This document shows, in pieces, positions 5,499 through 64,000 of a stretch of DNA of 64,000 bases (position 1 is its first letter; each line of letters begins with the position of its first letter). This DNA is from an uncultured Acidimicrobiaceae bacterium. Lineage in GTDB: Bacteria > Actinomycetota > Acidimicrobiia > Acidimicrobiales > RAAP-2. Under the pieces are notes generated by a model. It was not told the DNA's origin. It saw nothing but the letters and a program-made list of their open reading frames with translations, and did not search any database. The translations under genes and the position numbers were made by a program. Location: contig CAZULR010000001.1 of assembly GCA_964621235.1 (NCBI GenBank), positions 1,058 to 65,057 on the forward strand. Direction: 5' to 3'.

Positions 5499-5558
5499 CC
5501 CCCCGTCCCACGCCGAGTTGCCGACGCCAGCGGGCGTGGAGGCAGGTACCCCCGTGCC

Positions 5559-44794: not shown

Positions 44795-44813
44795 GTCGGG
44801 ACGTCAGCGGACG

Positions 44814-45852: not shown

Positions 45853-47160
45853 TCAGTTCAACGGCACCGGTCCACGGACTTCCGGGCCGGCCTTGGTGAC
45901 CTCCGACACGAGTCGGCCAACCTTCTCCTTGGCCGCCGTCCATTCATACCGGTCGAGATAGAGCGCTTCGGCGGCGTTTACGAGCCGCTGCCGCAGCTCC
46001 GGATCGGTGAGCAGTCGCTGGCAGGCGTCGGCAAACGCCTCGGCGTCATCGGCCAGCAGCAGGTGGACTCCGTCCTCGACATCGAGGCCGTCGGCACCTA
46101 ACCGGGTCGAGACGACGGGGATCCGGTGGGCGAAGGACTCGAGGATCTTGAGTCGGGTCCCGCTGCCGATCCGGAGTGGCACCACCGCCAGATCTGCACG
46201 TTCCAACTCAGGTTCCATGTCGGGAACCTGGCCCGTGACGACTACCTGTGGTGGGTGGTTGTGACGTTCGACGCCGGCGGTGGCCCGGCCAACGAGGCGG
46301 ATCTGGACGTTCGGGATCCGGTGGCGGAGGAGTGGTCCGATGTCGCCGACCAGCCAGTCGGCACCGTCGATATTCGGCGCATAGCGGAGGCTCCCTTGCA
46401 GGAGCACGACCGGAGGGTCTCCCACCACGACCGAGCCCATCTGGCTGGTCGGTGCGGGATAGGTGTTGGGGATCGAAAGCGCATTCGGAAATCCCGATCG
46501 CTTGACGTCGGATTCACTGCAGAGAACGACACGATCGACATCCTTGGCAACCGATTCTTGCAAGGCGATCCAGTCACGGGCGTTCTTGCTCGCCTGTGCC
46601 GCGGCGACGCGCAGCTTCAAGAAGTCGACTCCGTCTCGAGGTTTGGCCAGAGTCCGAAGCAGGCCGGCACGCTGGCGTGCCTTCTCGTCCTCGAGGTCCA
46701 CCAGGTCAATGACCGTAGGACCCAGGTTCGGGCGACCCATCCAGATGAAGGTCGCCGCAGTGGAGAACCACACCAGGTCGTATCGTTCCGCGGCCCATGC
46801 CTCGAACTGGATCCGCGGCGAGCGATCGAGCATCCGCATGGACACTTCCAAGGGAAGCGATCGTTGGGCCAGCCACTTCAGGCGCCAGTGCAGTTGACGG
46901 GGGGCGCCCGGGTAGAGGACGGTTCGAACCCGTCGGACCTTGATCGACGGTGGAACTTCGAATTCATCACCGCGCCTGATGTCATGCAAGGTGAAGAGGT
47001 CGACCTCACCGAGCTCGGCGATCGCCTCGATCATCTTGGCCAATCTGATGAGTCCCCCACCGGTGGAAGGCCACGGAAAGTCTTCTGCCACGATCAGAAT
47101 GGATAACGGACCTCCGTCCCTGCCCGTCATGGTTGGGGGCACGATGGATCGGTCGGTCAC
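45853..47160 (-). CDS. GT-B glycosyltransferase, family 4
   Basis: 435 aa. IGSGTRLKILESFAHRIPVVSTRLGADGL. Paralogue of 24330..25550. Confidence 0.9.
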   Translation of the reverse strand: MTDRSIVPPTMTGRDGGPLSILIVAEDFPWPSTGGGLIRLAKMIEAIAELGEVDLFTLHDIRRGDEFEVPPSIKVRRVRTVLYPGAPRQLHWRLKWLAQRSLPLEVSMRMLDRSPRIQFEAWAAERYDLVWFSTAATFIWMGRPNLGPTVIDLVDLEDEKARQRAGLLRTLAKPRDGVDFLKLRVAAAQASKNARDWIALQESVAKDVDRVVLCSESDVKRSGFPNALSIPNTYPAPTSQMGSVVVGDPPVVLLQGSLRYAPNIDGADWLVGDIGPLLRHRIPNVQIRLVGRATAGVERHNHPPQVVVTGQVPDMEPELERADLAVVPLRIGSGTRLKILESFAHRIPVVSTRLGADGLDVEDGVHLLLADDAEAFADACQRLLTDPELRQRLVNAAEALYLDRYEWTAAKEKVGRLVSEVTKAGPEVRGPVPLN

Positions 47161-48695: not shown

Positions 48696-48732
48696 GTGCG
48701 TGCGAACGGGACGTGCGGCGAGGGTGCCGCCA

Positions 48733-49614
48733 TCAACCGCCGGGAGCCCGGAAGGTGACCAGCTGCGCCATCTGCGGATAGTCCCTACAGACGGCGAACT
48801 CCTCGAGGCGGCACAAAATGGCGTCAGCCGAGAACTCCGCGTACCCGTTCAGTTCCCTACGGTCGCCACTCACCATGGTGAAGCCCAGGATGTCATCGAT
48901 CCAAGCGACCGAGGCATTCGTCCCCCAGACATTTTCAATCTGTGAGCAGAAGGGCGAGAGGTTGAGGAAGAGGTCGATCGTGAGGACCAAGAGGCCACCG
49001 GGCGCAAGGCGCTCCTTCACGGCCAACAGCGTGGCCTTGATGTCCTCGCGCGAGAGGTGCTCGATCGTCGAGATGCAAACGGCCGCGGAAAACGTCCCCG
49101 AGAGATCAGCTTCGGGAAGTGTCGACCGGTGTAGCCGCACGTCGGTGCCGAATACCTTGTTGAGTGCGTGGTGCTCCGCCACGGGATCCACCTCGTAGTC
49201 GCCGCTCCCATAGTCGAAGAACGGATCGACATTGTGAACTTCGTGGCCCTCCTTCGCCAAGACGAACTGAAGACCGGATAGCGCACCTCCGATCTCGAGG
49301 ATTCGAGAGGGACCGAGATCGGCGAGCTGGTGATAGGCCCACGGGAACTCGACCGATCGGGTGGGCGTGTTCCACTGGAAGGCGAACGGTCCCTGAGATC
49401 GTCGGACTTGTGCAGTTTGAAAGAACGGGCGCGTGGCGGGAGCCGGGAGCCGCCGGATGATCGAAAATGTTGCCTGGTGCCGTCCGCCAGGTGCACCCCA
49501 CCGGCGGTTCCACCGCTCAAATTCTGGCGGGAGTTCCCGTCTAGCCAGCATGCGTTGCCCCTGTTGATGCGGTCGAGTTGCGTCACTATAACTGGAATCA
49601 ACCAGAGAACCCAT
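48733..49614 (-). CDS. class I SAM-dependent methyltransferase
   Basis: 293 aa. ILEIGGALSGLQF (motif I), FSAAVCISTIEHL and LAPGGLLVLTI. Confidence 0.8.
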   Translation of the reverse strand: MGSLVDSSYSDATRPHQQGQRMLARRELPPEFERWNRRWGAPGGRHQATFSIIRRLPAPATRPFFQTAQVRRSQGPFAFQWNTPTRSVEFPWAYHQLADLGPSRILEIGGALSGLQFVLAKEGHEVHNVDPFFDYGSGDYEVDPVAEHHALNKVFGTDVRLHRSTLPEADLSGTFSAAVCISTIEHLSREDIKATLLAVKERLAPGGLLVLTIDLFLNLSPFCSQIENVWGTNASVAWIDDILGFTMVSGDRRELNGYAEFSADAILCRLEEFAVCRDYPQMAQLVTFRAPGG

Positions 49615-49946
49615 GGTGCCGGTGCCTGTCGACTCCGCTTGTCAATCACCACCGCTCGGTCATCGTCCGCACCGTGAAGTACCCGCGGAGCTCCAGCGGG
49701 ACAGAGGCTATTCCGCCGGAGGCGTTTGCCCGAACCAACCCGGGATAGAGCTGGTTCTGACCGCACCCCAGGAGGAATCCACGTGTTCTGGCTAAGCGAC
49801 CACCACGGCGTGAGCTCGAGTGTCGTCAATTTTGAGGACACGATGGAGAAGAAGTCGCACCATCCCCTTCGGTCGGTTGGCGGAAGCGGCGATGAACCCG
49901 TAGAATCAGCTGCATTGGGGGCGAGGAACGACGCAGGCGAGGGCAG

Positions 49947-50735
49947 ATGCGGTTGAACAGGTGGCACAGGATCACCGCAGCCTTGGCAATAATGATGTTG
50001 ACCGTCGGCGGTTCGATGGTGACGGCAGGGGTGGCGGAAGGTGCCCAGTCCGCTGGGGCTCGACCGATTCTGATCTTCAATTCCGCCGCACAGCAGGCCC
50101 AGCTGACCATCCCGACGCCCCCCTGTCCGAAGTCGGACAAGCATTGCAAGTGGATGCTCTACATGAACCTTCCGACCATGCCGATGCAGCCACGCGTGGG
50201 GTACGTCCTCGGTAAGTCAGGCACGCTGACGATCGACTACCCCAAGTTCTGTGGCCAGATCCAGGCTGACGCACTCGTCGGACCGGCCCCCTGGATCTAC
50301 AAGACCGGCATCCGCACGCAGATCCATACTTGCCACGAAACCACGACGACCACCACGACGACAACTTCGACGACTTCGACAACTACGACAACTACGACAA
50401 CGACCCGACCCACGACCACGTCGAGCACGGTTCCGCCCGTCGTCGCGGCGAGTTCCACCACACCCACGACGGCAGCCACGTCTTCGGCGCTCCCGTTCTC
50501 GGATCCTTCCACGACCTCGACCCCAGCGGTGGAGAAGACGGCAGCCGAGTTGCCATTCACTGGTGTCGACATCAAACCGCTGGGCCTCATCGGCACAATG
50601 CTGATTATCTTGGGGGGCATTCTCCTCTCCACCGTCGAATCGCGACGCAGAATGTTTCGGCGGGCGGCTGCCGTCAATCTCGACCAGGTGAAGGACGGCG
50701 TGCGGAATACGACCGCATGGTTCCTCGGACAGTAG
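49947..50735 (+). CDS. secreted Thr-rich cell-wall protein with LPXTG-type sorting signal
   Basis: 262 aa. Signal peptide (ITAALAIMMLTVGGSMVTAGVAEGAQS). Globular roughly 95-aa Cys-containing domain. Thr/Ser/Pro linker (about 50338-50490). LPFTG (50550-50564), a hydrophobic helix and RRRMFRR, followed by an atypical extra tail of about 25 aa. Confidence 0.8.
   Translation: MRLNRWHRITAALAIMMLTVGGSMVTAGVAEGAQSAGARPILIFNSAAQQAQLTIPTPPCPKSDKHCKWMLYMNLPTMPMQPRVGYVLGKSGTLTIDYPKFCGQIQADALVGPAPWIYKTGIRTQIHTCHETTTTTTTTTSTTSTTTTTTTTTRPTTTSSTVPPVVAASSTTPTTAATSSALPFSDPSTTSTPAVEKTAAELPFTGVDIKPLGLIGTMLIILGGILLSTVESRRRMFRRAAAVNLDQVKDGVRNTTAWFLGQ
50364..50399 (+). repeat. four imperfect tandem copies of a 9-nt Thr/Ser-codon unit inside the LPXTG gene
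   Basis: ACTTCGACG ACTTCGACA ACTACGACA ACTACGACA, read directly from the sequence and embedded in a longer ACN-rich tract. Confidence 0.8.
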
Positions 50736-50803
50736 GCATGCCCGCGTGGATGCCGGGCCACCCGACTGGGTTTCCCGAGCCTCTCCCGGACTAGAATCCC
50801 GAC

Positions 50804-52924
50804 ATGGCAGGGGTGGGATTGGAGTCTCGTGAGGAGGCCACGCGGGTGGTGGCGGCCAACTCCGACGTTCCTCCGGGGGACCAGCGTGGCGTAAGGCGAT
50901 TCGTGGTGGCCTCGATCCTGGGCGGAATCGTGGCTGCGGTGCCGTTCCTGTGGGTGCTCACGAATGAGTGGACCGGCTCCTACAACGGCGAACGTCGAAT
51001 CTCCTACCTGAGCGGCTTCTACGACAATCAGGCCGAGTCGATGATCCACGGCCATCTGTGGGTCGCTACGGGGAGCCTCGGCATCGAGGGATTCGTGCAT
51101 GACGGCCGGACCTATACCTACTTCGGCCTGTTGCTCTCCATCCTGAGGATCCCGTTCCTTCTGGTAGCGCCAGGCCTGAACGGACACCTGACGGCCCCGT
51201 CGATGTTGGTGGCGTGGCTACTGACCGGACTCTTCGCGGGGTTGCTGATCTGGCGCGTGCGGGTGCTGCTGCGGGGTCCGGTGGCGATCGGCTGGGCGGA
51301 ATCAATCTCCTGGGGCGTGGTGATGACCGCGATCCTCGGCGGCTCGGTACTCCTGTTCCTGGCTTCCGCGCCCTGGGTCTACGACGAGGACATCGCGTGG
51401 ACCGTCCCCATCACCGTCGCGACGCTCTTCGTCTTCCTCGGCATCCTCGAGCGGCCCACCGCCGGCAAAGTGCTCGCCGCAGGCGGGTTGGTGCTGGCCG
51501 GCGTCCTCGAACGCCCGTCACCGGCACTGGCGTGCATCGTCGGCGCCCTGCTCATCGCCGCCTGGTTCTACTTCGGTCGGGGCGAATCGCGACATCGCCG
51601 ATGGGCCCTCCCGATGGTGGCCGTCGGGGTCGTGCCGTTCGTGGTCTCCAGCGTGGTCAATTGGGTGAAGTTCGGAACGGTGCTGAACGGTCTTCCCCTG
51701 TCCGAACAGGTGTGGACCCAGGTGAATGCCCACCGGAGGGCGTTCCTGGCGGCGACCGGAGGAAAGGGGTACAGCTTCCACTTCCTCCCGACGATGTTCT
51801 GGGCGTACCTCCAGCCGTTCGGACTACGCGCCCAGCCGACGTTTCCGTTCCTCTCCCTACCGATCGCGCCACCCCATGTCTATGGCGGCTATATCGTCGA
51901 TATCCTGTATCCGACAGCCAGCGTTCCGGCGTCGATGCCCCTCCTGTTCCTCTTGAGCTGTTGGGCACTCGTCATGGCCTTCCGGCCGCATCCGAGTAGG
52001 GGTATGGTCCTGATGCGGATCCCGTTGCTGGTCGGGGTGGGCGCCACCTTGGTCGATTTCCTCCTGGGATACATCGCCCCCCGCTATCTGGGCGACTTCC
52101 TTCCGTTCCTCGTGCTCGGCGCGGCCATCGGGCTGGTCGATCTGTGGAGGCGATGGGATGGTTGGGCGCAACGGGCGAAGTGGCTTGCTGTTGGCGGCGT
52201 GATCGTTCTCGCGCTGTTCTCCGTCGCGGCCAACCTGGGAATCGCATTGACACCCACGACCGAGTGGACCCCGAAACAGTCGACCCACTACCTCCAGGCT
52301 GTCAACGCAGTGAGCAGCGTCACCGGGAACCCACTCAGGCGGCAGATCACCGTGGGCACCGTGATGCCCTACCAGGCACCGGCAGGCCAGGTGTTCATCG
52401 GCGGAGACTGCGTCGGCATGTATCTCTCTTCGGGTAAGCCGGTCTCGGCCGATCCCACCTTGCAGCGCGAGCACAAGATGTGGGTTCCCGTCGAGCAGAG
52501 TTCGGCCATCATCACCCGGATGGTGATGACCTTCAGCGCGCCGGCGGAGATCGGACCTGGTCTTCCGGTGCTGACGGTCGGCAGTGATGTCGTATCCCTC
52601 CGATCCGTCGGTGACCGGAGCGTGCAGTTCGTACTCGATGATCCGCGCTTTCCGATCACCGGCAAACGCGTGACTCCGAAGATCGGGCATACCTACCACC
52701 TCGTCGTCACGGCCGATCCGTTCCTGAACAGGATCACGCTGAACATGGGCAATCGCACGGTGCTGTCGGGGGTTCTCACGGGGGCGGGCACCGGCACCTC
52801 GCCGTTGGTCGTACACACCACCCCGCCTTCCTCCGTGGACGCCGTGCCGCCGGTCGTCATCGCCCATGGGCGACAGACCGTCCTGGACATGTCGCTGTGC
52901 CGTAGCCTGCTCAAGAACCGCTGA
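50804..52924 (+). CDS. large polytopic GT-C-like membrane protein with C-terminal extracytoplasmic domain (paralogue B)
   Basis: 706 aa, collinear with 37042..39171 over its full length, including the C-terminal domain (VTFGPDVVSVRSAGAGVKFVVHDANFPIVGKKF / LTVGSDVVSLRSVGDRSVQFVLDDPRFPITGKRV). Confidence 0.8.
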   Translation: MAGVGLESREEATRVVAANSDVPPGDQRGVRRFVVASILGGIVAAVPFLWVLTNEWTGSYNGERRISYLSGFYDNQAESMIHGHLWVATGSLGIEGFVHDGRTYTYFGLLLSILRIPFLLVAPGLNGHLTAPSMLVAWLLTGLFAGLLIWRVRVLLRGPVAIGWAESISWGVVMTAILGGSVLLFLASAPWVYDEDIAWTVPITVATLFVFLGILERPTAGKVLAAGGLVLAGVLERPSPALACIVGALLIAAWFYFGRGESRHRRWALPMVAVGVVPFVVSSVVNWVKFGTVLNGLPLSEQVWTQVNAHRRAFLAATGGKGYSFHFLPTMFWAYLQPFGLRAQPTFPFLSLPIAPPHVYGGYIVDILYPTASVPASMPLLFLLSCWALVMAFRPHPSRGMVLMRIPLLVGVGATLVDFLLGYIAPRYLGDFLPFLVLGAAIGLVDLWRRWDGWAQRAKWLAVGGVIVLALFSVAANLGIALTPTTEWTPKQSTHYLQAVNAVSSVTGNPLRRQITVGTVMPYQAPAGQVFIGGDCVGMYLSSGKPVSADPTLQREHKMWVPVEQSSAIITRMVMTFSAPAEIGPGLPVLTVGSDVVSLRSVGDRSVQFVLDDPRFPITGKRVTPKIGHTYHLVVTADPFLNRITLNMGNRTVLSGVLTGAGTGTSPLVVHTTPPSSVDAVPPVVIAHGRQTVLDMSLCRSLLKNR

Positions 52925-53810
52925 ATCACCATGCGATGAGGCGCCGGCAATCGGTGCTACTGGAGTCACGGGGAAGGTGATCGCCCGATCGGGAGGTCGG
53001 TCGACGCCAACCGGCATCGCCGCCGAATCGACCCGGCTCGCCCGTCGTCGGGAGGCTGACTCACCTTCCCGGACGAAATGGCTCACGCCTTCGCGGCACG
53101 TCGCGACCTGCGTGGTGGAAGCTCGGACTCGGCTCCGGCCGGTTGTCACTGGAGATGATCTCAGCGGTGGGGCCGTGCCAGGGAGCACCGCGGCATCCCG
53201 GCGCCACTCGGGCAGGAACTGACCCATCCGATCCCGCCCAGGGAGTTGGCGCGGCTCCGCTTTGGCAATTGGCGGACGACGGCCCACAGGCGGCCCGAGG
53301 GCTTTTGCATCATCTGCAGACGGGACCGGTAAACGTGGCTGGTCGACGGTCTCCGGGCGGTGCGACAGGCAAAGTTGCGGCCCCGGGTCGGCATCTCGGC
53401 GTGCCTGCCGTCCACCTCCAGACCAACTGCTCGGAGCACGCGTGGATGCGGGAAGCCGACGTCGACAAGACCACCGTCCGACAGCGCAGGAGGTCCTGGC
53501 GGACGTCGAAGAGTTCACCAAGAACGTCCATCGATCGCTCTCGCAACTGAGGTACCGGACACCGGCTGCCTAACCCGCCGAGCGGACCCGAAAAGCAGGC
53601 GGAATCACCAGGCGGATCGAGCCGGAATCGGGTCAGGGTGATTCTCACCTGATCGATGGGGGCAGGTGCGAACCGAATTCGGACACTCTCTCCCCCTGGG
53701 CACCACGGTTATCTTGTTCTTGTCCAGATTGTGTCGGGCGGGAAGGATCTCTGCACGCCGCGGTCATTTCGCCTTGGCCAACATGGGTGCGAGTCTGATA
53801 GGAAAGCCTC

Positions 53811-54758
53811 GTGATCGGACCGTCGAACCGTACCCACCGGGCGACGGTGCGCGGCGCCGCTCGAGCGCTCAGCTCGGCACCTGTGTTCATCGTGGGCGAG
53901 GCACGTAGTGGCACGTCACTCCTGTATCGAAGTCTCCAGAGCCACTCAGCGTTCCGGCCCCGCGTGGGTATCAATCTTGGCGAGAGCCACGCGCTCGAGT
54001 TACTCGCCGGCGTCGATCCTCCGGACGGGCCCGACAATTCTCTGGTTGACTTCATGACGGATGAGCGCCGATACGCCGAGTTCGTCGACGACATCGCGCA
54101 TCTGCGAAGTAGGCGAGAGTTCGTTCGCCGCGGATTCCCGGATACCCGCCAGAACCGTCTTGTGTGGATCGCCGCTGGCGACCATCTGGTCATCAGGCGT
54201 TACTTCATGGCCGCCGCCGAGGCGCGGGGCGCCGAACGCCTCATCGAGAAGACTCCACAGAATCTCCAGTGGGTACCTCTCCTGCAGATCGCCTTCCCCC
54301 GGGCCAGGTTCCTGTACATCGCTCGGCATCCGGTCGACACGTTGAGTTCGTACACGCGACGGTTTCAGGTCGATCCCGGTACGTCTTCTTGGGCCAACAT
54401 TGACTGGCGATCGTTCTGCGAGCGATGGAATACGAATACCAGCGCCGCCCTTCAGATGGCCCGCCACCGATCGTCCCGCCTCCTGGTGCTGCGCTATGAG
54501 GATTTGACGCAAAAAACCGAACCAACGATTCGACGCGTCCTTGCGCACGTCGGAGAGCCTTTCGAAGAGGACTGTCTGCTCACACATCGTGAGGAAGGGA
54601 AGAAGGCCTGGTGGATCGATCCCCACCTCTTCGAGCCGGTAGTGAACGAAACCAAGAATTGGCGAGACTACGTTAGTACCGAGTGCGCACAAGAGGTGGA
54701 ACGCGAATTGGCTTCTAACATGGCGTTACTCGGGTATCCACCATATACCGGGGTGTGA
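53811..54758 (+). CDS. sulfotransferase (Sulfotransfer_3-like)
   Basis: 315 aa, GTG start. 5'-PSB FIVGEARSGTSLL and 3'-PB YIARHPVDTLSSY. LVLRYEDL C-terminal box. Confidence 0.85.
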   Translation: MIGPSNRTHRATVRGAARALSSAPVFIVGEARSGTSLLYRSLQSHSAFRPRVGINLGESHALELLAGVDPPDGPDNSLVDFMTDERRYAEFVDDIAHLRSRREFVRRGFPDTRQNRLVWIAAGDHLVIRRYFMAAAEARGAERLIEKTPQNLQWVPLLQIAFPRARFLYIARHPVDTLSSYTRRFQVDPGTSSWANIDWRSFCERWNTNTSAALQMARHRSSRLLVLRYEDLTQKTEPTIRRVLAHVGEPFEEDCLLTHREEGKKAWWIDPHLFEPVVNETKNWRDYVSTECAQEVERELASNMALLGYPPYTGV

Positions 54759-55058
54759 CGGAACAGATCGTCCACGGATCGGCATTTAGTACGAGGCAGC
54801 GTCAGCTGGAAAGTCAGGGCCAGGATTCCGGTCGAGCTCATAGATGGACTCGAATAACGAAGCTGCGGGGTCGTCTGCCGAGCTGACGCCTACGTGCATG
54901 GCGATCGGGGCAGAACCGTTCAGGCGGGTCGGTGTGGAGCAAACCCCGCGGTTCCCAAGGATCGCCTGTGGTTACGACGGAGTCAGCGGTGCCTGCGTGA
55001 GGGGGTGGTTCGCCGCCGTGAACGAGTCGTCGGCCAGTTCGACACCCATGACTACGCG

Positions 55059-55781
55059 TTACTGACTCTTGGCTGATCCGTGAAGAATCTTCCAAAGCGA
55101 CGTCCGTACGTTCAGAGGTATTGCGTCCTTCACACGCCTCAACGGAGTCCGGGCGGAATCTGGAAAGAAGGGCTGATGCACCTGATTCTCTCCCAGTGGA
55201 CCTTCAGACAAGCGCCGAAATGCCGCCCACTTCTCGGTCGACTCCAACTGTTGCCATCGATCATCTCGCCCAAGAAATGAGTCGATGAACGAACTGACTT
55301 GAGGCAGCTGAATATCGTCAAAGATCACCACTCCGCCCTTGCGAAGCAGACCTGCACCATAGAACCAGTCGATGATCGGGATGGGGAACCCATGGCACCC
55401 ATCGATGAACACGAGGTCAAGTTGATCAATGGTCCCCGCCAACTCAGGTAGCGCCAACTCCGACGGTCGAACATCGAAGCGGAGAGTGTCCCTCGATATC
55501 TCGTGCTCATCGCAATACCGGACGACGGCGTCTGCTTCGTTCTGAAACGGCACTACGGCCAGGTGGTCACAACCCCAGGCGGCAAAGAGCACGGTCGAAA
55601 CCCCCGCACCCGTTTCCAGAGTTCGCGCGCCTTGGTGCAATTGCTCGGCCATCAACTGATAGCACTTGGGATCGGTGTTCCACACGGCACCATTCGGAGC
55701 TTCAGGGTGAACGATCGGAGGTGATGCCGTCACCCGGCTGATCCAAGCCAATCGATCCTGTCTGTCTTTATCGGCGTCCAC
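55059..55781 (-). CDS. class I SAM-dependent methyltransferase (Methyltransf_24/O-MT-like)
   Basis: 240 aa, GTG start. TLETGAGVSTVLFA (motif I), LDLVFIDGCH and LRKGGVVIFDD. GC is visibly lower than in the rest of the window. Confidence 0.8.
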   Translation of the reverse strand: MDADKDRQDRLAWISRVTASPPIVHPEAPNGAVWNTDPKCYQLMAEQLHQGARTLETGAGVSTVLFAAWGCDHLAVVPFQNEADAVVRYCDEHEISRDTLRFDVRPSELALPELAGTIDQLDLVFIDGCHGFPIPIIDWFYGAGLLRKGGVVIFDDIQLPQVSSFIDSFLGRDDRWQQLESTEKWAAFRRLSEGPLGENQVHQPFFPDSARTPLRRVKDAIPLNVRTSLWKILHGSAKSQ

Positions 55782-56365
55782 GACCGCAGCCTACCAGTCG
55801 GCATTTTGGGCAGGATTCCGATGGCGAATCCGGGTTGACTCCACGCCGAGGTGACAACGTGACCGGAGCTCGTCTCTCTGGTCCGGGTCAACTCCAGCCT
55901 GTCCGGCAGAGCGGGTCAGGCTCCCAGGGGAGCGTCACCGCCACTGTCCTCGGTGACCCACCGCGTTGAGCGGTGCGTGGATGTCCGGCAACGCATCCGG
56001 TTCCACCCCGATCTGTCCAGATGTCCTTTGCTACCATTCCCACTGATTCTTCGGCGACCACCTCGGGGGGCGAGTCAAGGAGATCGGGAGAACCACGCCG
56101 CTAACCGGCGTATGCGGCTGACTCCACTCCTGGTAGCTTTCGTCGACCCGGCGGTTGGAGAGTCAGTTCCAGTCTGGGTACGGCCATCGCCGGAACGTCA
56201 TGATCGTCGACTGATCTGGACAGTGCGGGCCAGGTGATTGGGGAGGAATGTAATTTGTCGTGAAGCGCATCTCCGATCCACTCCTCTCAGCATCCATACT
56301 GGTGTGGAAAGCGATACTTCAGGCCGGGCAAGAGGCCTCACTGGACATCTTCCAGGTGGCAGCGG

Positions 56366-58828
56366 ATGCAGCGCGTTGGATCGGAGGCGGGGGCGATGGC
56401 GGTACTTGAGGAAGGCGGCCAACTGGAGGGCCCATCGCCTGACGACGCCCCTGGCCAGCATCAGATACCACCAAGATCAACGCGATTGGAGCTCGTGGGG
56501 TTGTGCTGGGTCGTCGTCGCTGGAGTCGCCGTCCTAGCGCCAGCACTGATCCATGGCGTCTACCTGGGGCCGTTCAACCTCTTGACGCTGTACGGCACCC
56601 CTGGCGCCCATGGCGGCTCGGCTGAGAACGTCTACTTCAACGATCAGTTGTCGGCCATCATGCCGTGGACGGTCCTTGCGACTTCTCAGGTTCATCATGG
56701 TCTCCTGCCGTTGTGGAATTCCTACGGTGGCCTGGGATCTCCCCTTGCCTTCAACTGGCAGTCCGCCGTGTTCAGCTTCCCGGCACTGGTCGGCTATCTG
56801 GTGCCTGCGCATCTTTCGTATACCGTCACGATCGTCGTGACGGTGATCGTCGCCGGCACTGGCAGTTACGTCTTCGCCCGTCTGCTTGGAGTGGGTGTCG
56901 TCGGAGCGGCCATGGCTGGAACCGTGTTCGAACTGAGTGGGCCATTCATCGGATGGCTCGGATGGCCCCATGCAGCAGTGATCTCCTGGGCCGGATGGCT
57001 GTTCGCGGCGACGCTTCTCATCATCCGTGGTGGTCATCGTGCGCGCGTTATCGCTGGCTTTGCGTTGGTGCTGGCCTTTGCCGTCTATGCCGGACAACCG
57101 GAGATCTTGGCTCTGCTCCTGGTGTCCCTCGCCGTCTTTGTCCTCGTCCTGCTGATCCACCGCGCGGTGAGCGACGGACCACGTCAGGTCGTTCGGCCGA
57201 TCGTGGATCTGGCAATTGGGTCGGTGGCGGGTGGTGCCCTAGCGGCACCACTTGCACTTCCTGGACTCCAACTGGGTTCCGGTTCAGTCCACAGGGCCGC
57301 AGTGGCGACTCCTGCGCTCCCCGCACACGACCTGTCATATCTGATCTTCTCCGGATTCGACGGTCTCCCGGTGCCCGGCAGCAAGATGTTCGGTCCCTGG
57401 GGACTGGTGTACATCGGTGGCTACATCGGCATCATCGCCATCATTCTGGCGTTCGTCGCGATAGTGCTCCGGAGGCGTTCACCGGAGGTCATGGCGCTGG
57501 CAGCGGTCGCAGTGGTGACCGGAGGCATCGCCTTCGCGTCAATCGTCCCGTCCCTCAACTCGGTCGTCAACCGCGTGCCGACCGTGGGCCTGTCCCCGGC
57601 TCGGTTTCTGCTGGCCACGGCGTTCGCGCTGGCGATGCTGGCCGGGGTGGGAGCCGATGCCCTCCTTCGAGCCTCACGACTACGAGTGTGGGGTTGGATC
57701 GGACTTGCCTTCGGGGGCGCCGGTATCCTCGTGATCGGGATCTACATCTTGAGCATCGGACATCTTCCGGCTGTCGAGAACCGCATCCGCTCCGACAGCT
57801 TCGTCTGGCCGACCGCGCAAGTCCTCGTGGGGGTCATCTGCGCTGGTGTGGTTGTCGTCATGGGGACTCGGCGATCAGGAGATCCTGATCCAACACGGAA
57901 CGTGAAGCCACGATCGCCAGGAGCGATTCTCAGCTCAAGCGCTCAAGTTGCGGGAAGGTGGGCGGTCGTCGTTCTACTCATCTGTCAGACGGCGTTTCTG
58001 ATTTCCGCCGGCGCACCGCTGTTGCAGTCGAGCGCGGAGTTCTATCCGTCAAACCCGGCAACCACGACTCTCCAGCGAACGGTTGGATCGTCACTCGTCG
58101 GATTCGGGAGACCGACCTTTCTGTGCGTTGGCCTGGGGATCCCTGCGAATATCAATGACGTGTATGCCGTTCACGAATTAGCGCTCTACGATCCGATGAT
58201 TCCCAACAGCTACTTCACACCACCAAGCGGTCACAGCCATATGTTCGTAGGCTTTCCCGCTGAGAACACCTACTGTCCAGCTCTCGCCACAGTCTCTGAA
58301 GCCCAGCTGTATGGAGTTTCGTATGTTCTCGAACCCGCTGGTAAACCCGGTCCGATCGGTACCAGCTATGTCGCACGGATCGGTGTGGATGACCTCTACC
58401 GGGTTCCTAGGGCGTATCAGGCCACCTTGGTGCCGCAGGGCCAAGATGCCTCAACCTCTGAACAATCTCAGGCCACACCGGTGGCGGTCACGAAACCGAG
58501 CCCCACAGAGTGGACAATGCGTGTCAATTCCGCGACCACACGAACGCTGGTACTCCGCCTCAGTGACGTGCCGGGTTGGCGGGCAACCATTGACGGTCAG
58601 CCGCTCACACTCCAGTCGTCTTCCGGAATCATGCTGGCGGCGACGATCCCTGCCGGCCGCCATAGCATCGTGCTGCACTACTGGCCCGAGTCCTTCACCG
58701 CGGGAATATTCCTCGCATTATGCAGCGCGATCAGCCTGCTAACTGCAATGTTTATCGAGAGGCGCCGTCGTCCGACGCGTACGGCGGCGGCGACCTCGGT
58801 CGAAGCACCGACATCTGGTGGGGAGTAG
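56366..58828 (+). CDS. YfhO-family polytopic glycosyltransferase (GT-C type)
   Basis: 820 aa. The N-terminal box HHGLLPLWNSYGGLGSPLAFNWQSAVFSFP is typical of YfhO. More than 12 helices, a large C-terminal extracytoplasmic domain and a final helix. Confidence 0.85.
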   Translation: MQRVGSEAGAMAVLEEGGQLEGPSPDDAPGQHQIPPRSTRLELVGLCWVVVAGVAVLAPALIHGVYLGPFNLLTLYGTPGAHGGSAENVYFNDQLSAIMPWTVLATSQVHHGLLPLWNSYGGLGSPLAFNWQSAVFSFPALVGYLVPAHLSYTVTIVVTVIVAGTGSYVFARLLGVGVVGAAMAGTVFELSGPFIGWLGWPHAAVISWAGWLFAATLLIIRGGHRARVIAGFALVLAFAVYAGQPEILALLLVSLAVFVLVLLIHRAVSDGPRQVVRPIVDLAIGSVAGGALAAPLALPGLQLGSGSVHRAAVATPALPAHDLSYLIFSGFDGLPVPGSKMFGPWGLVYIGGYIGIIAIILAFVAIVLRRRSPEVMALAAVAVVTGGIAFASIVPSLNSVVNRVPTVGLSPARFLLATAFALAMLAGVGADALLRASRLRVWGWIGLAFGGAGILVIGIYILSIGHLPAVENRIRSDSFVWPTAQVLVGVICAGVVVVMGTRRSGDPDPTRNVKPRSPGAILSSSAQVAGRWAVVVLLICQTAFLISAGAPLLQSSAEFYPSNPATTTLQRTVGSSLVGFGRPTFLCVGLGIPANINDVYAVHELALYDPMIPNSYFTPPSGHSHMFVGFPAENTYCPALATVSEAQLYGVSYVLEPAGKPGPIGTSYVARIGVDDLYRVPRAYQATLVPQGQDASTSEQSQATPVAVTKPSPTEWTMRVNSATTRTLVLRLSDVPGWRATIDGQPLTLQSSSGIMLAATIPAGRHSIVLHYWPESFTAGIFLALCSAISLLTAMFIERRRRPTRTAAATSVEAPTSGGE

Positions 58829-58838
58829 TTGATCGAGG

Positions 58839-59837
58839 ATGGTTGACTCTCCGAACACACCGGATGCGCCGCAGGCTCCGCAACTCTGGATCGTCAGCCC
58901 GAGCTATCACGACGTCGAGTCCTTTCAGCTACTCCGTCAGCGAATCATCGCTCTTCGACAGCGTTGGTCTGTTGCGTACGACATCCACTTCGTCCTCGTC
59001 GATGACACCGGCGGCACGGACCACCGGATGTCTGACCTGGCGCCACTCGACGACGTCATGGTGGTCGAGCTGCCATTCAATGTCGGACATCAACGGGCCA
59101 TCGTGTTCGGCCTCCGGTCCATCCTGGATCTCATCGACGACGCCGATCTCATCGTGACGATGGACGCGGACGGCGAGGACCGGCCCGAGGATCTGCCGCG
59201 CCTCTTGGCCCCGTTGGAGGAGATTCCTTCCGAGTTAGGATTCCTTTCCGTCGCTCGACGTACCAAACGGCAGGAGTCGATCCGTTTCCGCACGATGTAT
59301 TTCCTCTTCCGGAACCTGTTCCGGATTCTCACGGGCACGACGGTGCGCAGTGGGAATTTCGCGGCATACCGCGGCGGGTTGGCCAAGCGGATTCTCATGC
59401 ATCCATACTTCGACCTGTGCTATTCGTCCACCCTCGTCAGCTTGGATGTTCCCGTGACGCTCGTTCCATGCCCACGTGGAAAGCGCTATGCCGGGCGATC
59501 GCGAATGAATCTGCTGAGGCTGTTCATGCACGGAACTCGAATGCTGATGCCATTCACGGATCGGATAGCAGTACGAGCGCTTGTTGCCTTCACCACGGCC
59601 TTCGCATTAGGCATCGTGCTGTCGGTATCGGTGGTGGCGATCCGAGTCTTTTCCACTGCTGCCATTCCGGGGTGGGCTACGGCAACCTTGCTGGGTATCC
59701 TGATTCTTTCATTTATTGCACTGGGCAATTTCGTGGTCCTCTTCGTCGTGTTTTCTCATTCACGGGGGATCTCGCTATCCGGATTGGAGGAGTACGTTGA
59801 CGGAGGCACTCGAAGCACACCTGCTTCGGCAGATTGA
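58839..59837 (+). CDS. polyprenyl-phosphate glycosyltransferase (GT2, GtrB/CsbB-like)
   Basis: 332 aa. VLVDDTGGTD, TMDADGEDRPEDLPRL and RRTKRQES. Two C-terminal helices, as in GtrB-type enzymes. Confidence 0.88.
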   Translation: MVDSPNTPDAPQAPQLWIVSPSYHDVESFQLLRQRIIALRQRWSVAYDIHFVLVDDTGGTDHRMSDLAPLDDVMVVELPFNVGHQRAIVFGLRSILDLIDDADLIVTMDADGEDRPEDLPRLLAPLEEIPSELGFLSVARRTKRQESIRFRTMYFLFRNLFRILTGTTVRSGNFAAYRGGLAKRILMHPYFDLCYSSTLVSLDVPVTLVPCPRGKRYAGRSRMNLLRLFMHGTRMLMPFTDRIAVRALVAFTTAFALGIVLSVSVVAIRVFSTAAIPGWATATLLGILILSFIALGNFVVLFVVFSHSRGISLSGLEEYVDGGTRSTPASAD

Positions 59838-60516
59838 GCATTCTCGCCGGTTCTTCTGGCAGCGGCTGCGGTGGCGGGTCGTGCGGCAGCAGTTGCCTGA
59901 CCGAACGCCGTTCGACCTGGTCGACGTCGGAGCCGGAGCCGGTCTGTTGGGTGAATTCCTGCAACGGGACCGCCCCCAGGCCAACTACCTCTTCGTGGAA
60001 CCGATCGAGTCGCTCAGGACGTTTCTTGCTGAGCGGTACGGCGCCGGAGCTGATCTGGGCGACGAGCTTACCTTCGATGATGCGCAATTCGTCACCCTCC
60101 TTGATGTTCTCGAGCATCAAGAGGACGACCGAGCCTTCCTCAAGGATCTGGTCGGAAAGATGGGCGTCGGATCGAAGCTGCTCCTCACTGTGCCGGCTCT
60201 CCAACGATTGTGGTCCGACTGGGACGTCAAGCTCGGACATTATCGGCGTTATGACCGGCAGACACTTGGTGCATGCTTCGAAGGCTTGCCGCTGTCTGTC
60301 GATGAGATCAGTTTCCTCTTTCCTGAGATGGTCCCTCTGGGAATACTGCGCGCCCGAAACAAGCATGGGAAGGTCACCGAGCAGAGTGCGGAGTTTCCCG
60401 ACCTTCCCGGACTGGTAAATGACGTGCTGTATCTTGCCGGCACCGGTTCAGTCGCTTTGCGTCGCCGATGGGGTACCGGCACGTCGCTTTTCGCGGTAGC
60501 AACCGTGACCGGGTGA
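59797..60516 (+). CDS. class I SAM-dependent methyltransferase
   Basis: ORF 59716..60516. The 5' part overlaps the GtrB-like gene, so a TTG start at 59797 (TEALEAHLLRQ) is plausible but uncertain. LVDVGAGAGLLG (motif I), FVTLLDVLEHQ and GSKLLLTVP. Confidence 0.8.
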   Translation: MTEALEAHLLRQIEHSRRFFWQRLRWRVVRQQLPDRTPFDLVDVGAGAGLLGEFLQRDRPQANYLFVEPIESLRTFLAERYGAGADLGDELTFDDAQFVTLLDVLEHQEDDRAFLKDLVGKMGVGSKLLLTVPALQRLWSDWDVKLGHYRRYDRQTLGACFEGLPLSVDEISFLFPEMVPLGILRARNKHGKVTEQSAEFPDLPGLVNDVLYLAGTGSVALRRRWGTGTSLFAVATVTG

Positions 60517-60905
60517 GATCTGCCGCCGAACCTCGTCATAACGGGCAATGGGGTGGACCAGCGTCTTTCGCGGCGGAAGGCGCGTAATCGATGGGTATCA
60601 GGTTCTCACGTTCCCGGTTGGTCACGCTTGCGTCGAGTCGCACTGGTCGTCGTGATCGGGTCCCGATGACTGGTCAGCTGGACCACTTCCAGGAGGTCAG
60701 CTGACCGCGAAGGACCCGGGGACTGGTCCACACGCGATTAGGCGGACCTTGTCCGTCGCCGATCGGCCCGCTATGGATTTCTGCCGCCGGGAGAGGTGGC
60801 AGGTGGGTGGGGTGAATCCATCGAGACGTGGCGGGCCGAAGTGCATCGCTCCCGACAGGTAGCACCGCCCTCAGGGCGCTGCGCCCGAGGAGGGCCAAGC
60901 GCGAG

Positions 60906-60935
60906 AAAGGGACGGAGCCGGAGCTCCGTCCCTTT
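60906..60935 (-). terminator. stem-loop downstream of secreted-protein gene copy 1
   Basis: AAAGGGACGGAGC-CGGA-GCTCCGTCCCTTT, with a 10-bp GC-rich stem extendable by A/T pairs. On the coding (minus) strand it is followed only by TTTCT. Confidence 0.45.
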
Positions 60936-61005
60936 CACTGAGCCGGTCACCAGATTCGGCGACCGCCGCACCCAGAGGTGCTACTCATACATGCTGATCT
61001 CCGAG

Positions 61006-61683
61006 TTAGGAGATCTTCGCCTTGCTGTCGGCAGCAATCGCCGCGGTGGCGATGGTGACACCAGGAGCACCGAGGTCGTTCTCGAAGTTGCCGGTGGTAC
61101 CAGGGCCCGTGTCCGATCCCAGGCACACGGTGTCCTTCACAGTCTGACCGGCATCGGCGGCCGGCGCGGTCAGGTGACCCTTGATGTTGAATCCGGCCTC
61201 ACCGGAAGCACACGTCAGAGCGACCGACGACGACGTGAGAGCTGCCGTGTAGCTGGTAGCGCCGATCTTGATCTTCAGGGTCCCGATGCTCGACCACAGC
61301 GTCGACGCCGACGAGGCGAAGTCGCCGACCGAGTCGTAGTTGTACTGCCCGGACGAGCAACCCGTCACCGGCGTGTTCGTGCCCGTGCATGCGGTGTTGG
61401 CGGTGGTGATGTTGATGGGGTTCGTCTTGCCCGTGCCGGGTGAACCACAGTTGTACTTCACCGTGGTCGTCGTGGTCGTCGACGTGGACGCCGATTCGAA
61501 CGAACCGTTCTGGGACAGCCCGGGAGTCGCGAAGTCGACGGTGCCACTGGTGACCTTGCAGGTGATGGCCAGGGCGGTGGCCCCGGCGGTTCCGGACTGG
61601 GCAACGGAGGTGACCGCGGTCACACCGAACGCCCCCAGCGGAATTGCGACCGCAGAAGCGATCAAAAGCATCTTTCGCAGCAT
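61006..61683 (-). CDS. secreted Cys-containing Ser/Thr/Gly-rich protein, unknown family (tandem copy 1)
   Basis: ORF 61006..61755. Start taken at ATG 61683 by homology with copy 2 and the AAGGAG Shine-Dalgarno 10 nt upstream. 225 aa. Signal peptide MLRKMLLIASAVAIPLGAFGVTAVTSVAQS. Six conserved Cys. Confidence 0.8.
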   Translation of the reverse strand: MLRKMLLIASAVAIPLGAFGVTAVTSVAQSGTAGATALAITCKVTSGTVDFATPGLSQNGSFESASTSTTTTTTVKYNCGSPGTGKTNPINITTANTACTGTNTPVTGCSSGQYNYDSVGDFASSASTLWSSIGTLKIKIGATSYTAALTSSSVALTCASGEAGFNIKGHLTAPAADAGQTVKDTVCLGSDTGPGTTGNFENDLGAPGVTIATAAIAADSKAKIS

Positions 61684-61707
61684 CTTGTTGTTGCTCCTTT
61701 TCGTTAA

Positions 61708-61723
61708 CCTGCACGAGTGCAGG
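61708..61723 (-). promoter_or_regulatory. 16-nt dyad-symmetric element 24 nt upstream of the copy-1 start codon
   Basis: CCTGCAC-GA-GTGCAGG on the plus strand. The same position in copy 2 carries CCTGCAT-GA-ATGCAGG. Confidence 0.45.
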
Positions 61724-62166
61724 ACTAGCGTCAGGCGACGGGCGCCCCCCAACATTGCGTTACCGAGCGATGCCGCGGCTAAGCGTGGTTGTTGTACTGA
61801 GTCCCCCAGCCCCTAGCCGCACCTCGGTCGGCACTGCACTTTAACGAACCGGACTTCCCAATACAAGGTTACCGGTGGCCCCACAAAGGCATCCTCATGA
61901 AATCCTCACAATTGATGAGTGACTGACCAGTTCGGGGAGCCGCATCCGGTGGCCGGTGGCGTGGAACCTCGGCCTGACCTGGGAGTTCGACGGCCCAGTT
62001 CGCACGAGAGCACCCCGGTATCGTCCTCCAGGACGGAAAAGGAAGTGATGACGATCGGCGCGCCCGGCTGCAGCCGAGGACATCCCGCGACAGTCCGGTC
62101 TGCCACGTCCCGAGAGCAGCACGCGGTGCCTCGTCCCAGGGCGACGGCCACGGAGGCACGGGCGCG

Positions 62167-62199
62167 AAAAAGGGACGGAGCCGGAGCTCCGTCCCTTTT
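62167..62199 (-). terminator. rho-independent-type terminator downstream of secreted-protein gene copy 2
   Basis: AAAAAGGGACGGAGC-CGGA-GCTCCGTCCCTTTT. On the minus strand the stem is followed by TTTTT, and on the plus strand by TTTT, so it may act in both directions. Confidence 0.6.
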
Positions 62200-62268
62200 C
62201 CCGAGCCGGTCACCTGAAGTGGTGACCGCCGCACCCGGAGGTGCTACTCGTGCATGCTGATCTCCGAG

Positions 62269-62946
62269 TTAGGAGATCTTCGCCTTGCTGTCGGCGGCGA
62301 TGGCTGCCGTGGCGATGGTGACACCCGGTGTCGTGAAGTCGGTGACGAAGTTTCCGGTCGTACCGGGTCCGGTGTCGGATCCGAGGCACGTGGTCAGCTT
62401 CATCGTCTCACCGGCGTGGGCGGCGGGAGCGGTCAGCTTGCCCTTGAGGTTGAATCCGGCCTCACCGCTGGCACAGGTGATTGCCACCGTCGACGACGTG
62501 AGATTCGCCTTGTAGCTGGTGGTGCCGATCTTGACGGTCAGCGTACCGATCTCCGAGTACAGCGACGAGGCGTTCGAGGCGAACGTGCCCTCTGAGTCGT
62601 AGTTGTACTGTCCGGTCGAGCAACCCGTCACCGGCGTGTTCGCGCCGGTGCAGGCGGTGCTGGCGGAGGTGATGGAGATGGGCTTCGTCGTGCCCGTGCC
62701 GGCGGTCCCGCAGTTGTACTTCACCGTGGTGGTACCGGCCGTGGAACTCGGCGACGACTCGAACGACCCGTTCTGGGACAGCCCGGGAGTGGCGAAGTCG
62801 ACGGTGCCACTGGTGACCTTGCAGGTGATGGCCAGGGCGGTGGCCCCGGCGGTTCCGGACTGGGCGACGGAGGTGACCGCGGTCACACCGAACGCGCCGA
62901 GCGGAATGGCGACCGCAGAAGCGATCAAAAGCATCTTGCGCAGCAT
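62269..62946 (-). CDS. secreted Cys-containing Ser/Thr/Gly-rich protein, unknown family (tandem copy 2)
   Basis: 225 aa. The signal peptide is identical to copy 1. AAGGAG Shine-Dalgarno. The six Cys are conserved in position. Confidence 0.85.
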   Translation of the reverse strand: MLRKMLLIASAVAIPLGAFGVTAVTSVAQSGTAGATALAITCKVTSGTVDFATPGLSQNGSFESSPSSTAGTTTVKYNCGTAGTGTTKPISITSASTACTGANTPVTGCSTGQYNYDSEGTFASNASSLYSEIGTLTVKIGTTSYKANLTSSTVAITCASGEAGFNLKGKLTAPAAHAGETMKLTTCLGSDTGPGTTGNFVTDFTTPGVTIATAAIAADSKAKIS

Positions 62947-62969
62947 CTAGTTGTTGCTCCTTATGGTTG

Positions 62970-62985
62970 CCTGCATGAATGCAGG
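62970..62985 (-). promoter_or_regulatory. 16-nt dyad-symmetric element 24 nt upstream of the copy-2 start codon
   Basis: CCTGCAT-GA-ATGCAGG. It differs from copy 1 by a symmetric double substitution. Confidence 0.45.
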
Positions 62986-63261
62986 ACGTGAGTCAGGCGA
63001 CGGGTGCCCCCCAACGTTGCGATGCCGAACCGAGCCGCGGCGAAGCCTGGCCGTTTCTTCGATTGCCCCAGCCTCCGGACGTAGCGCGGTCGGCAGGCGA
63101 ACCCTAGCGAGTCGCCGTACCCGATACAAGGCACCCCGCCGACCGTTCCAATTCTGCACAGTGTTAGGTAGGGGGCCCCGATGCGCCGATACACGCGACG
63201 GTCGCCGTGGAGGGATCGTCCCTCCCGGGTCGGCCGGCCCCCGTGTCGCGCGCCGTGGGCC

Positions 63262-64000
63262 TCAGGTACTCCACAGGGAGGCCGGACGGATGCCCCAGGC
63301 GACCTGGCGGGCCAGCTCGGCACTGACGACGGGCAGGTCGGCGGCGTGGGTCACGCCGACGAGCTGGCTGTCCGTGGTCAGCACCCGCACCGGGAGGCCG
63401 GTTCCACCGGCCACCATCGTGGAGACGACCTCGGGAAGGAGCACCTCGGCCTTCGGTGCCTCGTCGCCGGCGGCGACCCGGGCGATCAGCGCCTCCTCGT
63501 CGAGCCCCGAGGCGTCCATGGCCTCGTGGAACACACTCCAGATCCCCGGATGGAACCCCCACAGGTTCACTGACGTCGCCAGGCCACCCTCGAGACGCGC
63601 GGGCTCGAGTCCGTCGTCGGAGACGAAGCCGCCGGTGCCGTCGGTGTGGACCGTCCGCCGTTCGTCGAGGGAGACGAGGAGACCGCCGGGTCCCACGGTG
63701 CAGATGCCGCGGGTGACGGGGTCCGCGGTCGCCACGGTCTCGCGCAGCTGGTAGCCGACGAGCACGTGCTCGTCGGCGTGGGAGCCGAGGTGCTCCGCCA
63801 GCAGCCGCATCGCCGACTCCCCGTAGACGTCGTCGGCGTTGCATACGCCGAAGGACGCATCGGGCCGGAGGGCGGTCTCGGCGGCGAGGACCGCGTGGAC
63901 CGTCCCGAGCGGCAGCCGCTGCTCGGTGAAGGACACGCCGACCGACTCCGGCCAGCACTGCTCCACGTGGTACCGGATCGCCGGTCCGGTCTCGGGATGG
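63262..64000 (-). CDS. sugar-phosphate nucleotidyltransferase (NTP_transferase fold), C-terminal part; 5' end beyond the right edge
   Basis: The reading frame stays open to position 64000 (..HPETGPAIRYHVEQCWPESVGVSFTEQRLPLGTVHAVLAAE..NADDVYG). The LGT.HAV box is typical of NDP-sugar pyrophosphorylases. Confidence 0.8.
   Translation of the reverse strand, partial: HPETGPAIRYHVEQCWPESVGVSFTEQRLPLGTVHAVLAAETALRPDASFGVCNADDVYGESAMRLLAEHLGSHADEHVLVGYQLRETVATADPVTRGICTVGPGGLLVSLDERRTVHTDGTGGFVSDDGLEPARLEGGLATSVNLWGFHPGIWSVFHEAMDASGLDEEALIARVAAGDEAPKAEVLLPEVVSTMVAGGTGLPVRVLTTDSQLVGVTHAADLPVVSAELARQVAWGIRPASLWST

Follow-up and report, generated by a model that had tools for sequence, protein, structure and literature searches.

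The 64,000-nt stretch of DNA analysed here (referred to as the window) is part of contig CAZULR010000001.1 of an uncultured Acidimicrobiaceae bacterium (assembly GCA_964621235.1) and contains, close to its 3' end, two minus-strand genes, hereafter copy A and copy B, each of which encodes a 225-aa protein (Table 1). A first-pass annotation of this DNA had described them as a tandemly duplicated pair with an identical signal peptide, six positionally conserved cysteines and a conserved C-terminus, and the open reading frames and a BLASTP comparison confirmed this description. The two proteins align without gaps and share 186 of 225 residues (83%), including two fully identical blocks (residues 1-63 and 207-225), and both have Cys at positions 42, 79, 99, 109, 158, and 187. 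Five of these six Cys are at least 90% conserved among 50 family members, and C79 is invariant among 24 closer members. Within the coding sequence (CDS), nt 1-123 differ at five positions, exactly as the annotation had counted, and nt 1-189 at eight, every one of them synonymous. The sequence AAGGAG is found 10 nt before each ATG (61694-61699 in copy A, 62957-62962 in copy B). The duplicated DNA extends from about 190 nt 5' of each ATG to about 115 nt beyond each stop codon, with an offset of 1263 bp between the copies, and the duplicated stretch is one full transcription unit per copy.

Both proteins carry a Sec-type signal sequence consisting of the n-region MLRK, the segment LLIASAVAIPLGAFGVTAV and a terminal TAGA that is followed by T. 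A33, G34 and A35 are invariant among the 24 close members, and A33 and A35 are at least 90% conserved among the 50 members; on the basis of the AxA rule and this conservation, A33-G34-A35 is likely the signal peptidase I site, with cleavage after A35. The mature protein would comprise about 190 aa (18.6 kDa) with a pI of 5.1 (copy A) or 6.5 (copy B) and no Arg at all, with Thr, Ser, Ala and Gly together accounting for 55-57% of its residues and Thr alone for 18-20%. The six Cys probably form three disulfides; their spacing and conservation, as opposed to the structural model, suggest C42-C79, C99-C109 and C158-C187 as tentative pairs. Four other modes of export or anchoring were considered and rejected. 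A bacterial lipoprotein was dismissed given that the first Cys is residue 42 (in A-I-T-C), seven residues past AGA, and that a lipobox is absent; a Tat substrate given that the n-region (MLRKM) has a single Arg followed by Lys and no twin-arginine motif; a sortase anchor given that the C-terminus (...AADSKAKIS) has neither LPXTG nor a hydrophobic tail; and an SLH anchor given that neither protein matches a Pfam domain at E≤1.

The proteins had been annotated as secreted members of an unrecognised family, and alongside the signal peptide the family searches agree with this. Neither protein was assigned to any family of Pfam-A or NCBIfam at E≤1; a search of the family profile against PDB sequences returned noise only. 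A word-indexed search identified 54 close homologues, all of them nameless or "hypothetical" and without precomputed Pfam domains. An exhaustive profile search of 1.84 billion representatives identified 244 clusters at E≤0.001 (178 at E≤1e-10), counted at 50% identity, whose members are nearly all stand-alone proteins of 220-260 aa. Since the family has 54 close homologues and some 244 distant clusters, the pair is not due to chance. Wherever organism labels were given for family members or loci, these were exclusively Acidimicrobiales or Acidimicrobiaceae metagenome-assembled genomes (MAGs); the metagenome matches derive from JGI metagenome assemblies, and a profile scan of contigs with closer alignment yielded only four distant Acidimicrobiales MAG loci. 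Literature searches on S-layers and secreted proteins of Acidimicrobiia yielded nothing relevant. On the evidence of these searches, this is an undescribed protein family known only from Acidimicrobiales.

Several family members deviate from the stand-alone form. P0095, P0133, P0191, and P0188 contain the domain twice in tandem, P0074 has an extra N-terminal module, and P0146, a large secreted protein of 882 aa from a metagenome, ends in the domain (~195 residues) and also has a Laminin_G_3 (LamG_3) domain, a He_PIG Ig domain and an extended Gly-rich region. P0146 was the only fusion to annotated domains that was found. The tandem copies, the added module and this fusion together fit an extracellular module.

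The mature part is predicted to be a compact beta-rich domain of about 190 aa. AlphaFold2 modelled the mature domain from 104 sequences with a predicted local distance difference test (pLDDT) value of 96.9 and a predicted template modelling score of 0.88, and the protein including its signal peptide from 50 sequences with a pLDDT of 85.5; the predicted fold has approximately 14 strands and two short helices. A fold match was accepted at a Foldseek E-value <0.001 or a TM-score >0.5, and none was found: against the PDB the best E-values were 0.15 (model with pLDDT 85.5) and 0.09 (model with pLDDT 96.9) at query-normalised TM-scores ≤0.31, and against the viral models of BFVD the best E-value was 0.08. 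The weak matches, which are at noise level, were repeatedly to lipid-binding half-barrels and to small barrels. Two segments, E162-x-G-F and D191-x-G-x-x-T-T-G-x-F-x-x-D203, contain clusters of invariant Gly, Asp and Glu residues.

These structural features bear on one alternative, namely that the domain is a soluble or appended glycan- or lipid-binding module, acting as a secreted binder or carrier and not as a structural coat. The C-terminal position of the domain in the LamG_3 and He_PIG protein and its occurrence as tandem repeats would suit such a role, the invariant E162 and D191...D203 clusters suggest a binding loop, and the weak, non-significant Foldseek matches were to LprG, LmcA, CoxG, START and YceI-like proteins. 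Those matches are nevertheless at noise level (E >0.08, TM <0.4), and neither a ligand nor a pocket or partner was identified. We regard this alternative as unlikely; it is compatible with the extracellular role proposed below.

According to the annotation, each gene has a strong AAGGAG ribosome-binding site and its own GC-rich terminator and forms a transcription unit of its own with strong expression signals, and both copies were found to match this on account of a promoter-like site, a structured leader and a terminator. The promoter-like sites follow a relaxed actinobacterial pattern (TTGnnn-N17-TAnnnT) and lie at the same distance from the ATG in copies A and B. In the form TTGTAT-N17-TA(A/G)(A/G)GT, the pattern has its -10 element 149-156 nt 5' of the ATG in both window copies and at other family loci (both copies of L012, L014, L017, both copies of L018, L025, and L023); the distance is 72-74 nt in a subgroup with short leaders and 223-227 nt in a more distant subgroup. 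The predicted start of transcription is about 147 nt 5' of the ATG in copies A and B and about 65 nt in the short-leader subgroup. A scan for Escherichia coli-consensus promoters and terminators gave nothing useful at the pair. Further upstream of copy A, the box TCAATTGTGAGGATTTCATGAGGA recurs at the same distance and with at most one substitution in L012, L015, L025, L023, and L024. It is kept in L023 and L024 at 48% protein identity and is absent 5' of copy B, and it may be an activator or regulator site through which the two copies are differently regulated.

The leader RNA of copy A is predicted to fold into two hairpins that occupy the last ~70 nt before the ATG, hairpin 1 (GUUGGG..GUC..CUGAC) and hairpin 2 (CCUGCA-CUCG-UGCAGG), followed by AAGGAG and the ATG; this Shine-Dalgarno (SD) sequence is unpaired in the minimum free energy fold. 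In an alignment of 17 leaders, 98% of the cells can pair and two-sided changes occur in six of 15 pairs, including four of the six pairs of the SD-proximal hairpin, a level of pairing that none of 500 column shuffles matched. A covariance model built on this motif had 35 matches in the 286 kb of the window and the family loci, exactly two of them in the window, and every match terminates at a family gene's start codon. A long-range pairing between a G-rich box and the 5' arm of hairpin 2, suggested by RNAalifold for the full 150-nt leader, was discarded given that it had almost no compensatory support.

The two 3' untranslated regions (UTRs) of 111 nt fold far better than shuffled sequences (z -4.6 and -6.2), with an outer stem around two hairpins followed by the terminator and with compensatory changes in nine of 34 pairs. 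The terminator is a perfect 10-bp GC-rich hairpin, GGGACGGAGC-UCCG-GCUCCGUCCC, between an A tract and a U tract, and its core (GGGACGGRGC-N4-GCYCCGTCCC) was found only after family genes, including one at 39% protein identity. When positions 60500-63400 were compared with Rfam by cmscan (E≤1), the sole match was a spurious one to a miRNA (21.8 bits against a gathering score of 85). When the flanks of family loci were aligned, the 72-nt leader and the 3' UTR were about as conserved as the coding DNA, and further upstream, over about 290 nt, the flank of copy A aligns with only some of the loci. The effective number of codons was 37.4 for copy A and 34.7 for copy B, the lowest among the 17 window genes sampled. 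Taken together, the promoter, leader, 3' UTR, terminator and codon use argue for selection on high and stable expression.

Table 1. Positions of the two gene copies and their associated features in the window.
Feature	Position	Strand	Description and basis
Copy A CDS	61006-61683	minus	225 aa including signal peptide; open reading frame list, family alignment, composition, AlphaFold2 model
Copy B CDS	62269-62946	minus	225 aa, 83% identical to copy A
Copy A signal peptide (codons 1-35)	61579-61683	minus	n-region MLRK, hydrophobic core, A33-G34-A35
Copy B signal peptide (codons 1-35)	62842-62946	minus	Protein sequence identical to that of copy A
Copy A promoter-like site	61838-61866	minus	TTGTAT-N17-TAAAGT; -10 ends 154 nt 5' of ATG; pattern match
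Copy B promoter-like site	63101-63129	minus	TTGTAT-N17-TAGGGT; pattern match
Conserved box TCAATTGTGAGGATTTCATGAGGA	61892-61915	minus	26-49 nt 5' of the -35 of copy A; TGAGGA twice, 11 nt apart
Copy A leader RNA motif	61681-61761	minus	Covariance model R1, 79 bits
Copy B leader RNA motif	62944-63023	minus	Covariance model R1, 78 bits
Copy A structured 3' UTR	60895-61005	minus	Two small hairpins, then long terminator hairpin; core 60909-60932
Copy B structured 3' UTR and terminator	62158-62268	minus	Core 62172-62195
Putative conversion tract, copy A side (B-type sequence)	61504-61699	minus	SD to CDS nt ~180; site counts, synonymous divergence (dS), distances
Putative conversion tract, copy B side (likely donor)	62767-62962	minus	dS, distances, maximum chi-square

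Paired copies were found at several family loci, as direct pairs in the window, L012, L018, L015/L025, L005, L006, and L027, whereas the two genes of L002 are convergent. The locus L012 comes from a strain-level relative and is 99.1% identical to the window over 9 kb. Its copy B is 99.0% identical to that of the window; copy A (61006-61683 in the window, 10001-10678 in L012) is 97.8% identical, which is below the average of the locus, and differs by two adjacent amino acid changes (E201-N202 to A-A). A third paralogue, P0018 (63% identical), is encoded on the same 706-kb contig as L012. In L008 (region 1300-8702), P0018 follows a run of same-strand fn3/TIG/He_PIG multi-domain surface-protein genes after a gap of only 88 nt, has the SD-proximal hairpin and lacks the family terminator, and it may be co-transcribed with these preceding genes. 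A sibling family of proteins of about 230 aa was also observed (L027:272-964; L005:7998-8399 and 9167-9868). What it has in common with the family described here is the leader RNA motif, the signal peptide and the start of the mature protein (~50 residues), with an hhalign probability of 96% in that part only, and it differs in the remaining protein; in L027 a sibling gene and a true family member form a tandem.

The near-identity of the 5' ends and the divergence of the remainder had been ascribed by the annotation either to gene conversion at the 5' end or to diversifying selection on the exposed part, and the two proposals fared differently. For the comparison of A with B, rates of non-synonymous (dN) and synonymous (dS) change were calculated by the Nei-Gojobori method. 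Codons 1-63 have a dN of 0 and a dS of 0.17, and codons 64-225 a dN of 0.18 and a dS of 0.45. In the latter segment, the genes closest to copy A are L001 and L002b (nucleotide distance 0.18-0.19, dN 0.10), and the one closest to copy B is L002a (nucleotide distance 0.20, dN 0.155). As L002 has one A-type and one B-type gene, the split between A and B predates these genomes. In codons 1-63, the nucleotide distance between A and B is only 0.042, compared with 0.28 between A and L001/L002b and 0.14 between A and L002a, from which it follows that copy A bears a B-type 5' end. The neighbour-joining trees of the two segments accordingly disagree with each other, and a maximum chi-square breakpoint was located near CDS nt 180 (permutation p=0.0002), with 50 of 53 informative sites to the left of nt ~180 uniting A with B and 41 of 91 to the right. 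Upstream of the ribosome-binding site the identity of A and B is back down to about 83%, which implies a conversion tract of about 200 nt. The proposal that the 5' identity of the two copies reflects gene conversion is thus supported by the incongruent trees and the breakpoint.

Nucleotide-level purifying selection for translation initiation and export, acting after a single duplication, would be another way to account for the near-identical 5' ends without any conversion. The leader and the signal peptide are indeed the most conserved parts of the family and are common even to the sibling family. Yet between genomes the synonymous divergence of the 5' segment (0.45-0.95 in codons 1-63) is as high as that of the rest of the gene, so constraint alone fails to explain the identity of A and B, and the A-type orthologues L001 and L002b have a signal-peptide sequence clearly unlike that of copy A. 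Selective constraint in place of conversion is for these reasons very improbable.

The other proposal, that the mature region diverged under diversifying selection on an exposed surface, was not borne out; escape from recognition by phages or predators would be one conceivable cause of such selection. A dN/dS above 1 was looked for in the pairwise A/B comparison over the whole gene and in sub-windows and was not found; the ratio was 0.35 for the whole gene and 0.40 for codons 64-225, and it reached at most 0.60 in any sub-window. The excess of non-synonymous change in the mature region, whose absence the annotation had named as evidence against its proposal, was not seen. It may be said in favour of such selection that the ratio between the paralogues (0.40) exceeds that between putative orthologues (0.16 for A and L001, 0.30 for B and L002a) and that several genomes hold multiple divergent copies. 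The pattern nonetheless agrees with a duplication long ago that was followed by subfunctionalisation or a relaxation of constraint, and we consider diversifying selection an improbable cause of the divergence.

The pair lies beside genes for glycan synthesis, namely a YfhO (glycosyltransferase class C, GT-C) gene (56366-58828), a GtrB-like GT2 gene (58839-59837) and methyltransferase genes, to which it is convergent and with which it is not co-transcribed. The annotation had placed the pair at the edge of a glycosylation island and had proposed the proteins as glycoprotein substrates. The island is real, but its link to the pair is weak, given that the adjacency recurs only in the 99.1%-identical strain L012 and that five other family loci have unrelated surroundings. 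L012 keeps the same pair together with the methyltransferase, GT2, YfhO and sulfotransferase neighbours; since it belongs to the same species, this synteny is not independent. Of these five loci, L001 lies beside genes for a BNR protein and a two-component system, L002 beside genes for RCC1, MBG_2 and beta-helix proteins, L007 beside assorted metabolic genes, L008 beside genes for fn3/TIG/He_PIG surface proteins, and L011 beside genes for a GT4 and methyltransferases.

If copies A and B were O-glycoprotein substrates of the adjacent YfhO/GT2 system, modified at their Ser/Thr patches, this would suit the high Thr content of the mature protein and the genuine glycan island whose edge the pair occupies, with its genes for YfhO, GT2, methyltransferases, a sulfotransferase and synthesis of 3'-phosphoadenosine-5'-phosphosulfate (PAPS). 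The adjacency is kept in L012, and one other family gene, in L011, lies near a GT4 and methyltransferases. This explanation is at odds with the contexts of L001, L002, L007, and L008, which lack a glycosyltransferase, and with the convergent orientation of pair and island. The Thr run at residues 64-74 is moreover modelled by AlphaFold2 as ordered beta-strands (pLDDT >90) and not as a disordered linker, and the characterised YfhO proteins glycosylate teichoic acids and are not known to glycosylate proteins. A glycoprotein-substrate role is in our view quite unlikely.

Some observations on the surrounding DNA are of interest in their own right. Positions 39661-54758 contain an island for a cell-surface glycan that includes a complete branch for sulfation, with genes for a DegT aminotransferase, a PF00953 (WecA/MraY-type) transferase, GT1, GT2, methyltransferases, PAPS synthesis (CysD-like, CysN-like and the adenosine-5'-phosphosulfate kinase CysC) and a sulfotransferase (53811-54758), which suggests that a sulfated polysaccharide is made in an Acidimicrobiales bacterium. 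The block at 53600-60500 (sulfotransferase, Methyltransf_24, YfhO, GT2, Methyltransf_23) has a GC content of 0.595-0.62 and a GC content at third codon positions of 0.62-0.70, both clearly below those of the rest of the window (0.75-0.87 at third positions), and it may have been horizontally acquired. Within it, the methyltransferase open reading frame at 59716-60516 (266 aa from a TTG start) has some 120 nt in common with the end of the GT2 gene; its true start probably lies further downstream, because the orthologue in L012 was called at 239 aa.

Combining these lines of evidence, we propose, with a probability of roughly 60%, that copies A and B are old paralogues of a secreted Acidimicrobiales family which are organised as self-contained units, have undergone conversion at their 5' ends and have an abundant extracellular or envelope-associated structural or binding role. 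Each unit would be transcribed from a sigma-A-type promoter into an mRNA with a ~150-nt leader containing two hairpins and an exposed AAGGAG, encodes a Sec signal peptide and a six-Cys beta-rich domain, and ends in a structured 3' UTR with a terminator. The split of A and B came before the divergence of several related genomes. In this genome, about 200 nt between the ribosome-binding site and approximately codon 60 were copied by gene conversion from the B-type into the A-type gene, and the remainder of the gene diverged under relaxed purifying selection. This copying accounts for an identical signal peptide and identical first mature residues next to a divergent rest. The two copies would be differentiated variants of one extracellular protein.

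Most of the uncertainty of this combined reading sits in its functional part. The proteins would be abundant and disulfide-bonded and would have a structural or binding role outside the cell or at its envelope, to judge from the conserved expression signals, the codon bias, the composition (mildly acidic, without Arg) and the fusion to adhesin-like proteins. A surface-layer or adhesin-like role, as put forward in the first-pass annotation, is possible. Several points weigh against the proposal as a whole. Expression, abundance and localisation are deduced here from sequence alone, the promoter and the start of transcription are assigned by pattern matching, and the codon bias barely exceeds that of some neighbouring genes. 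Six Cys and a size of 19 kDa are atypical of classical S-layer proteins, and the SLH, LPXTG and lipobox anchors are missing. The search for a matching fold was confined to the PDB and to models of viral proteins, and no shared neighbour gene or consistent functional clue was found at L001, L002, L007, L008, and L011.

Comparison with known systems places several of these features. The sap (S-layer) family of Campylobacter fetus consists of several paralogues with a conserved 5' block, which includes the N-terminal coding part, and a divergent rest, an arrangement kept by recombination. Copies A and B resemble it in their shared 5' block, their divergent remainder and the recombination between copies, and have no sequence or fold relationship to it. 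The sap proteins are of about 100 kDa, lack a Sec signal peptide and depend on a single shared invertible promoter, whereas each 19-kDa copy described here has its own promoter, leader, Sec signal and terminator. Long stabilising 5' UTRs on highly expressed mRNAs are known from Lactobacillus slpA, E. coli ompA and the Bacillus subtilis aprE leader. As judged from sequence alone, copies A and B are like these in having biased codons, a strong intrinsic terminator and a long conserved hairpin leader that leaves the Shine-Dalgarno sequence exposed; unlike them, the A/B leader has no Rfam match and the protein no SLH domain or known anchor. Like the Streptomyces chaplins and rodlins and the mycobacterial MPT63, MPT64 and MPB70, the proteins are small, Sec-exported, lineage-restricted and present as several paralogues, such proteins often containing disulfides, but they have no Pfam match and no Foldseek match to the solved structures of that group. 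Finally, a GtrB-like GT2 and a YfhO GT-C adjoin the pair as in the three-component GtrB/YfhO glycosylation systems, whose known acceptors are teichoic acids and polysaccharides; here, GT2 and YfhO are on the strand opposite to the pair, and in other genomes they are not linked to the family.

Surface-protein genes that occur in several copies and recombine in a common 5' block, and stabilising leaders on mRNAs of envelope proteins, are already known kinds. What is new is a protein family that matches no Pfam or NCBIfam family and no fold in the PDB or BFVD, together with a leader and terminator cassette that is conserved down to ~35-40% protein identity. The biology so far is within ordinary expectations for an orphan secreted protein and not yet surprising. 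A more far-reaching possibility, which we hold to be unlikely, is that the family is the major cell-surface coat or matrix protein of soil and peat Acidimicrobiales with an unseen fold and family-specific leader and 3' UTR control. Its cassettes, several per genome, would exchange segments by conversion and thereby vary what is exposed at the surface, with the module for export and expression left intact.

The leader motif of this well-conserved cassette could become a new entry among RNA families, and the locus is a clear natural case of partial gene conversion between old paralogues. If the proteins are abundant, the cassette would be a ready high-expression and secretion module for high-GC Gram-positive hosts. 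The Acidimicrobiales are abundant, almost uncultured Actinobacteria of soil, peat and freshwater, and we know of nothing that has been established about their cell surface. For this order, the locus offers a family of secreted proteins that matches no solved fold, that has a very confidently predicted structure and that is specific to the lineage.

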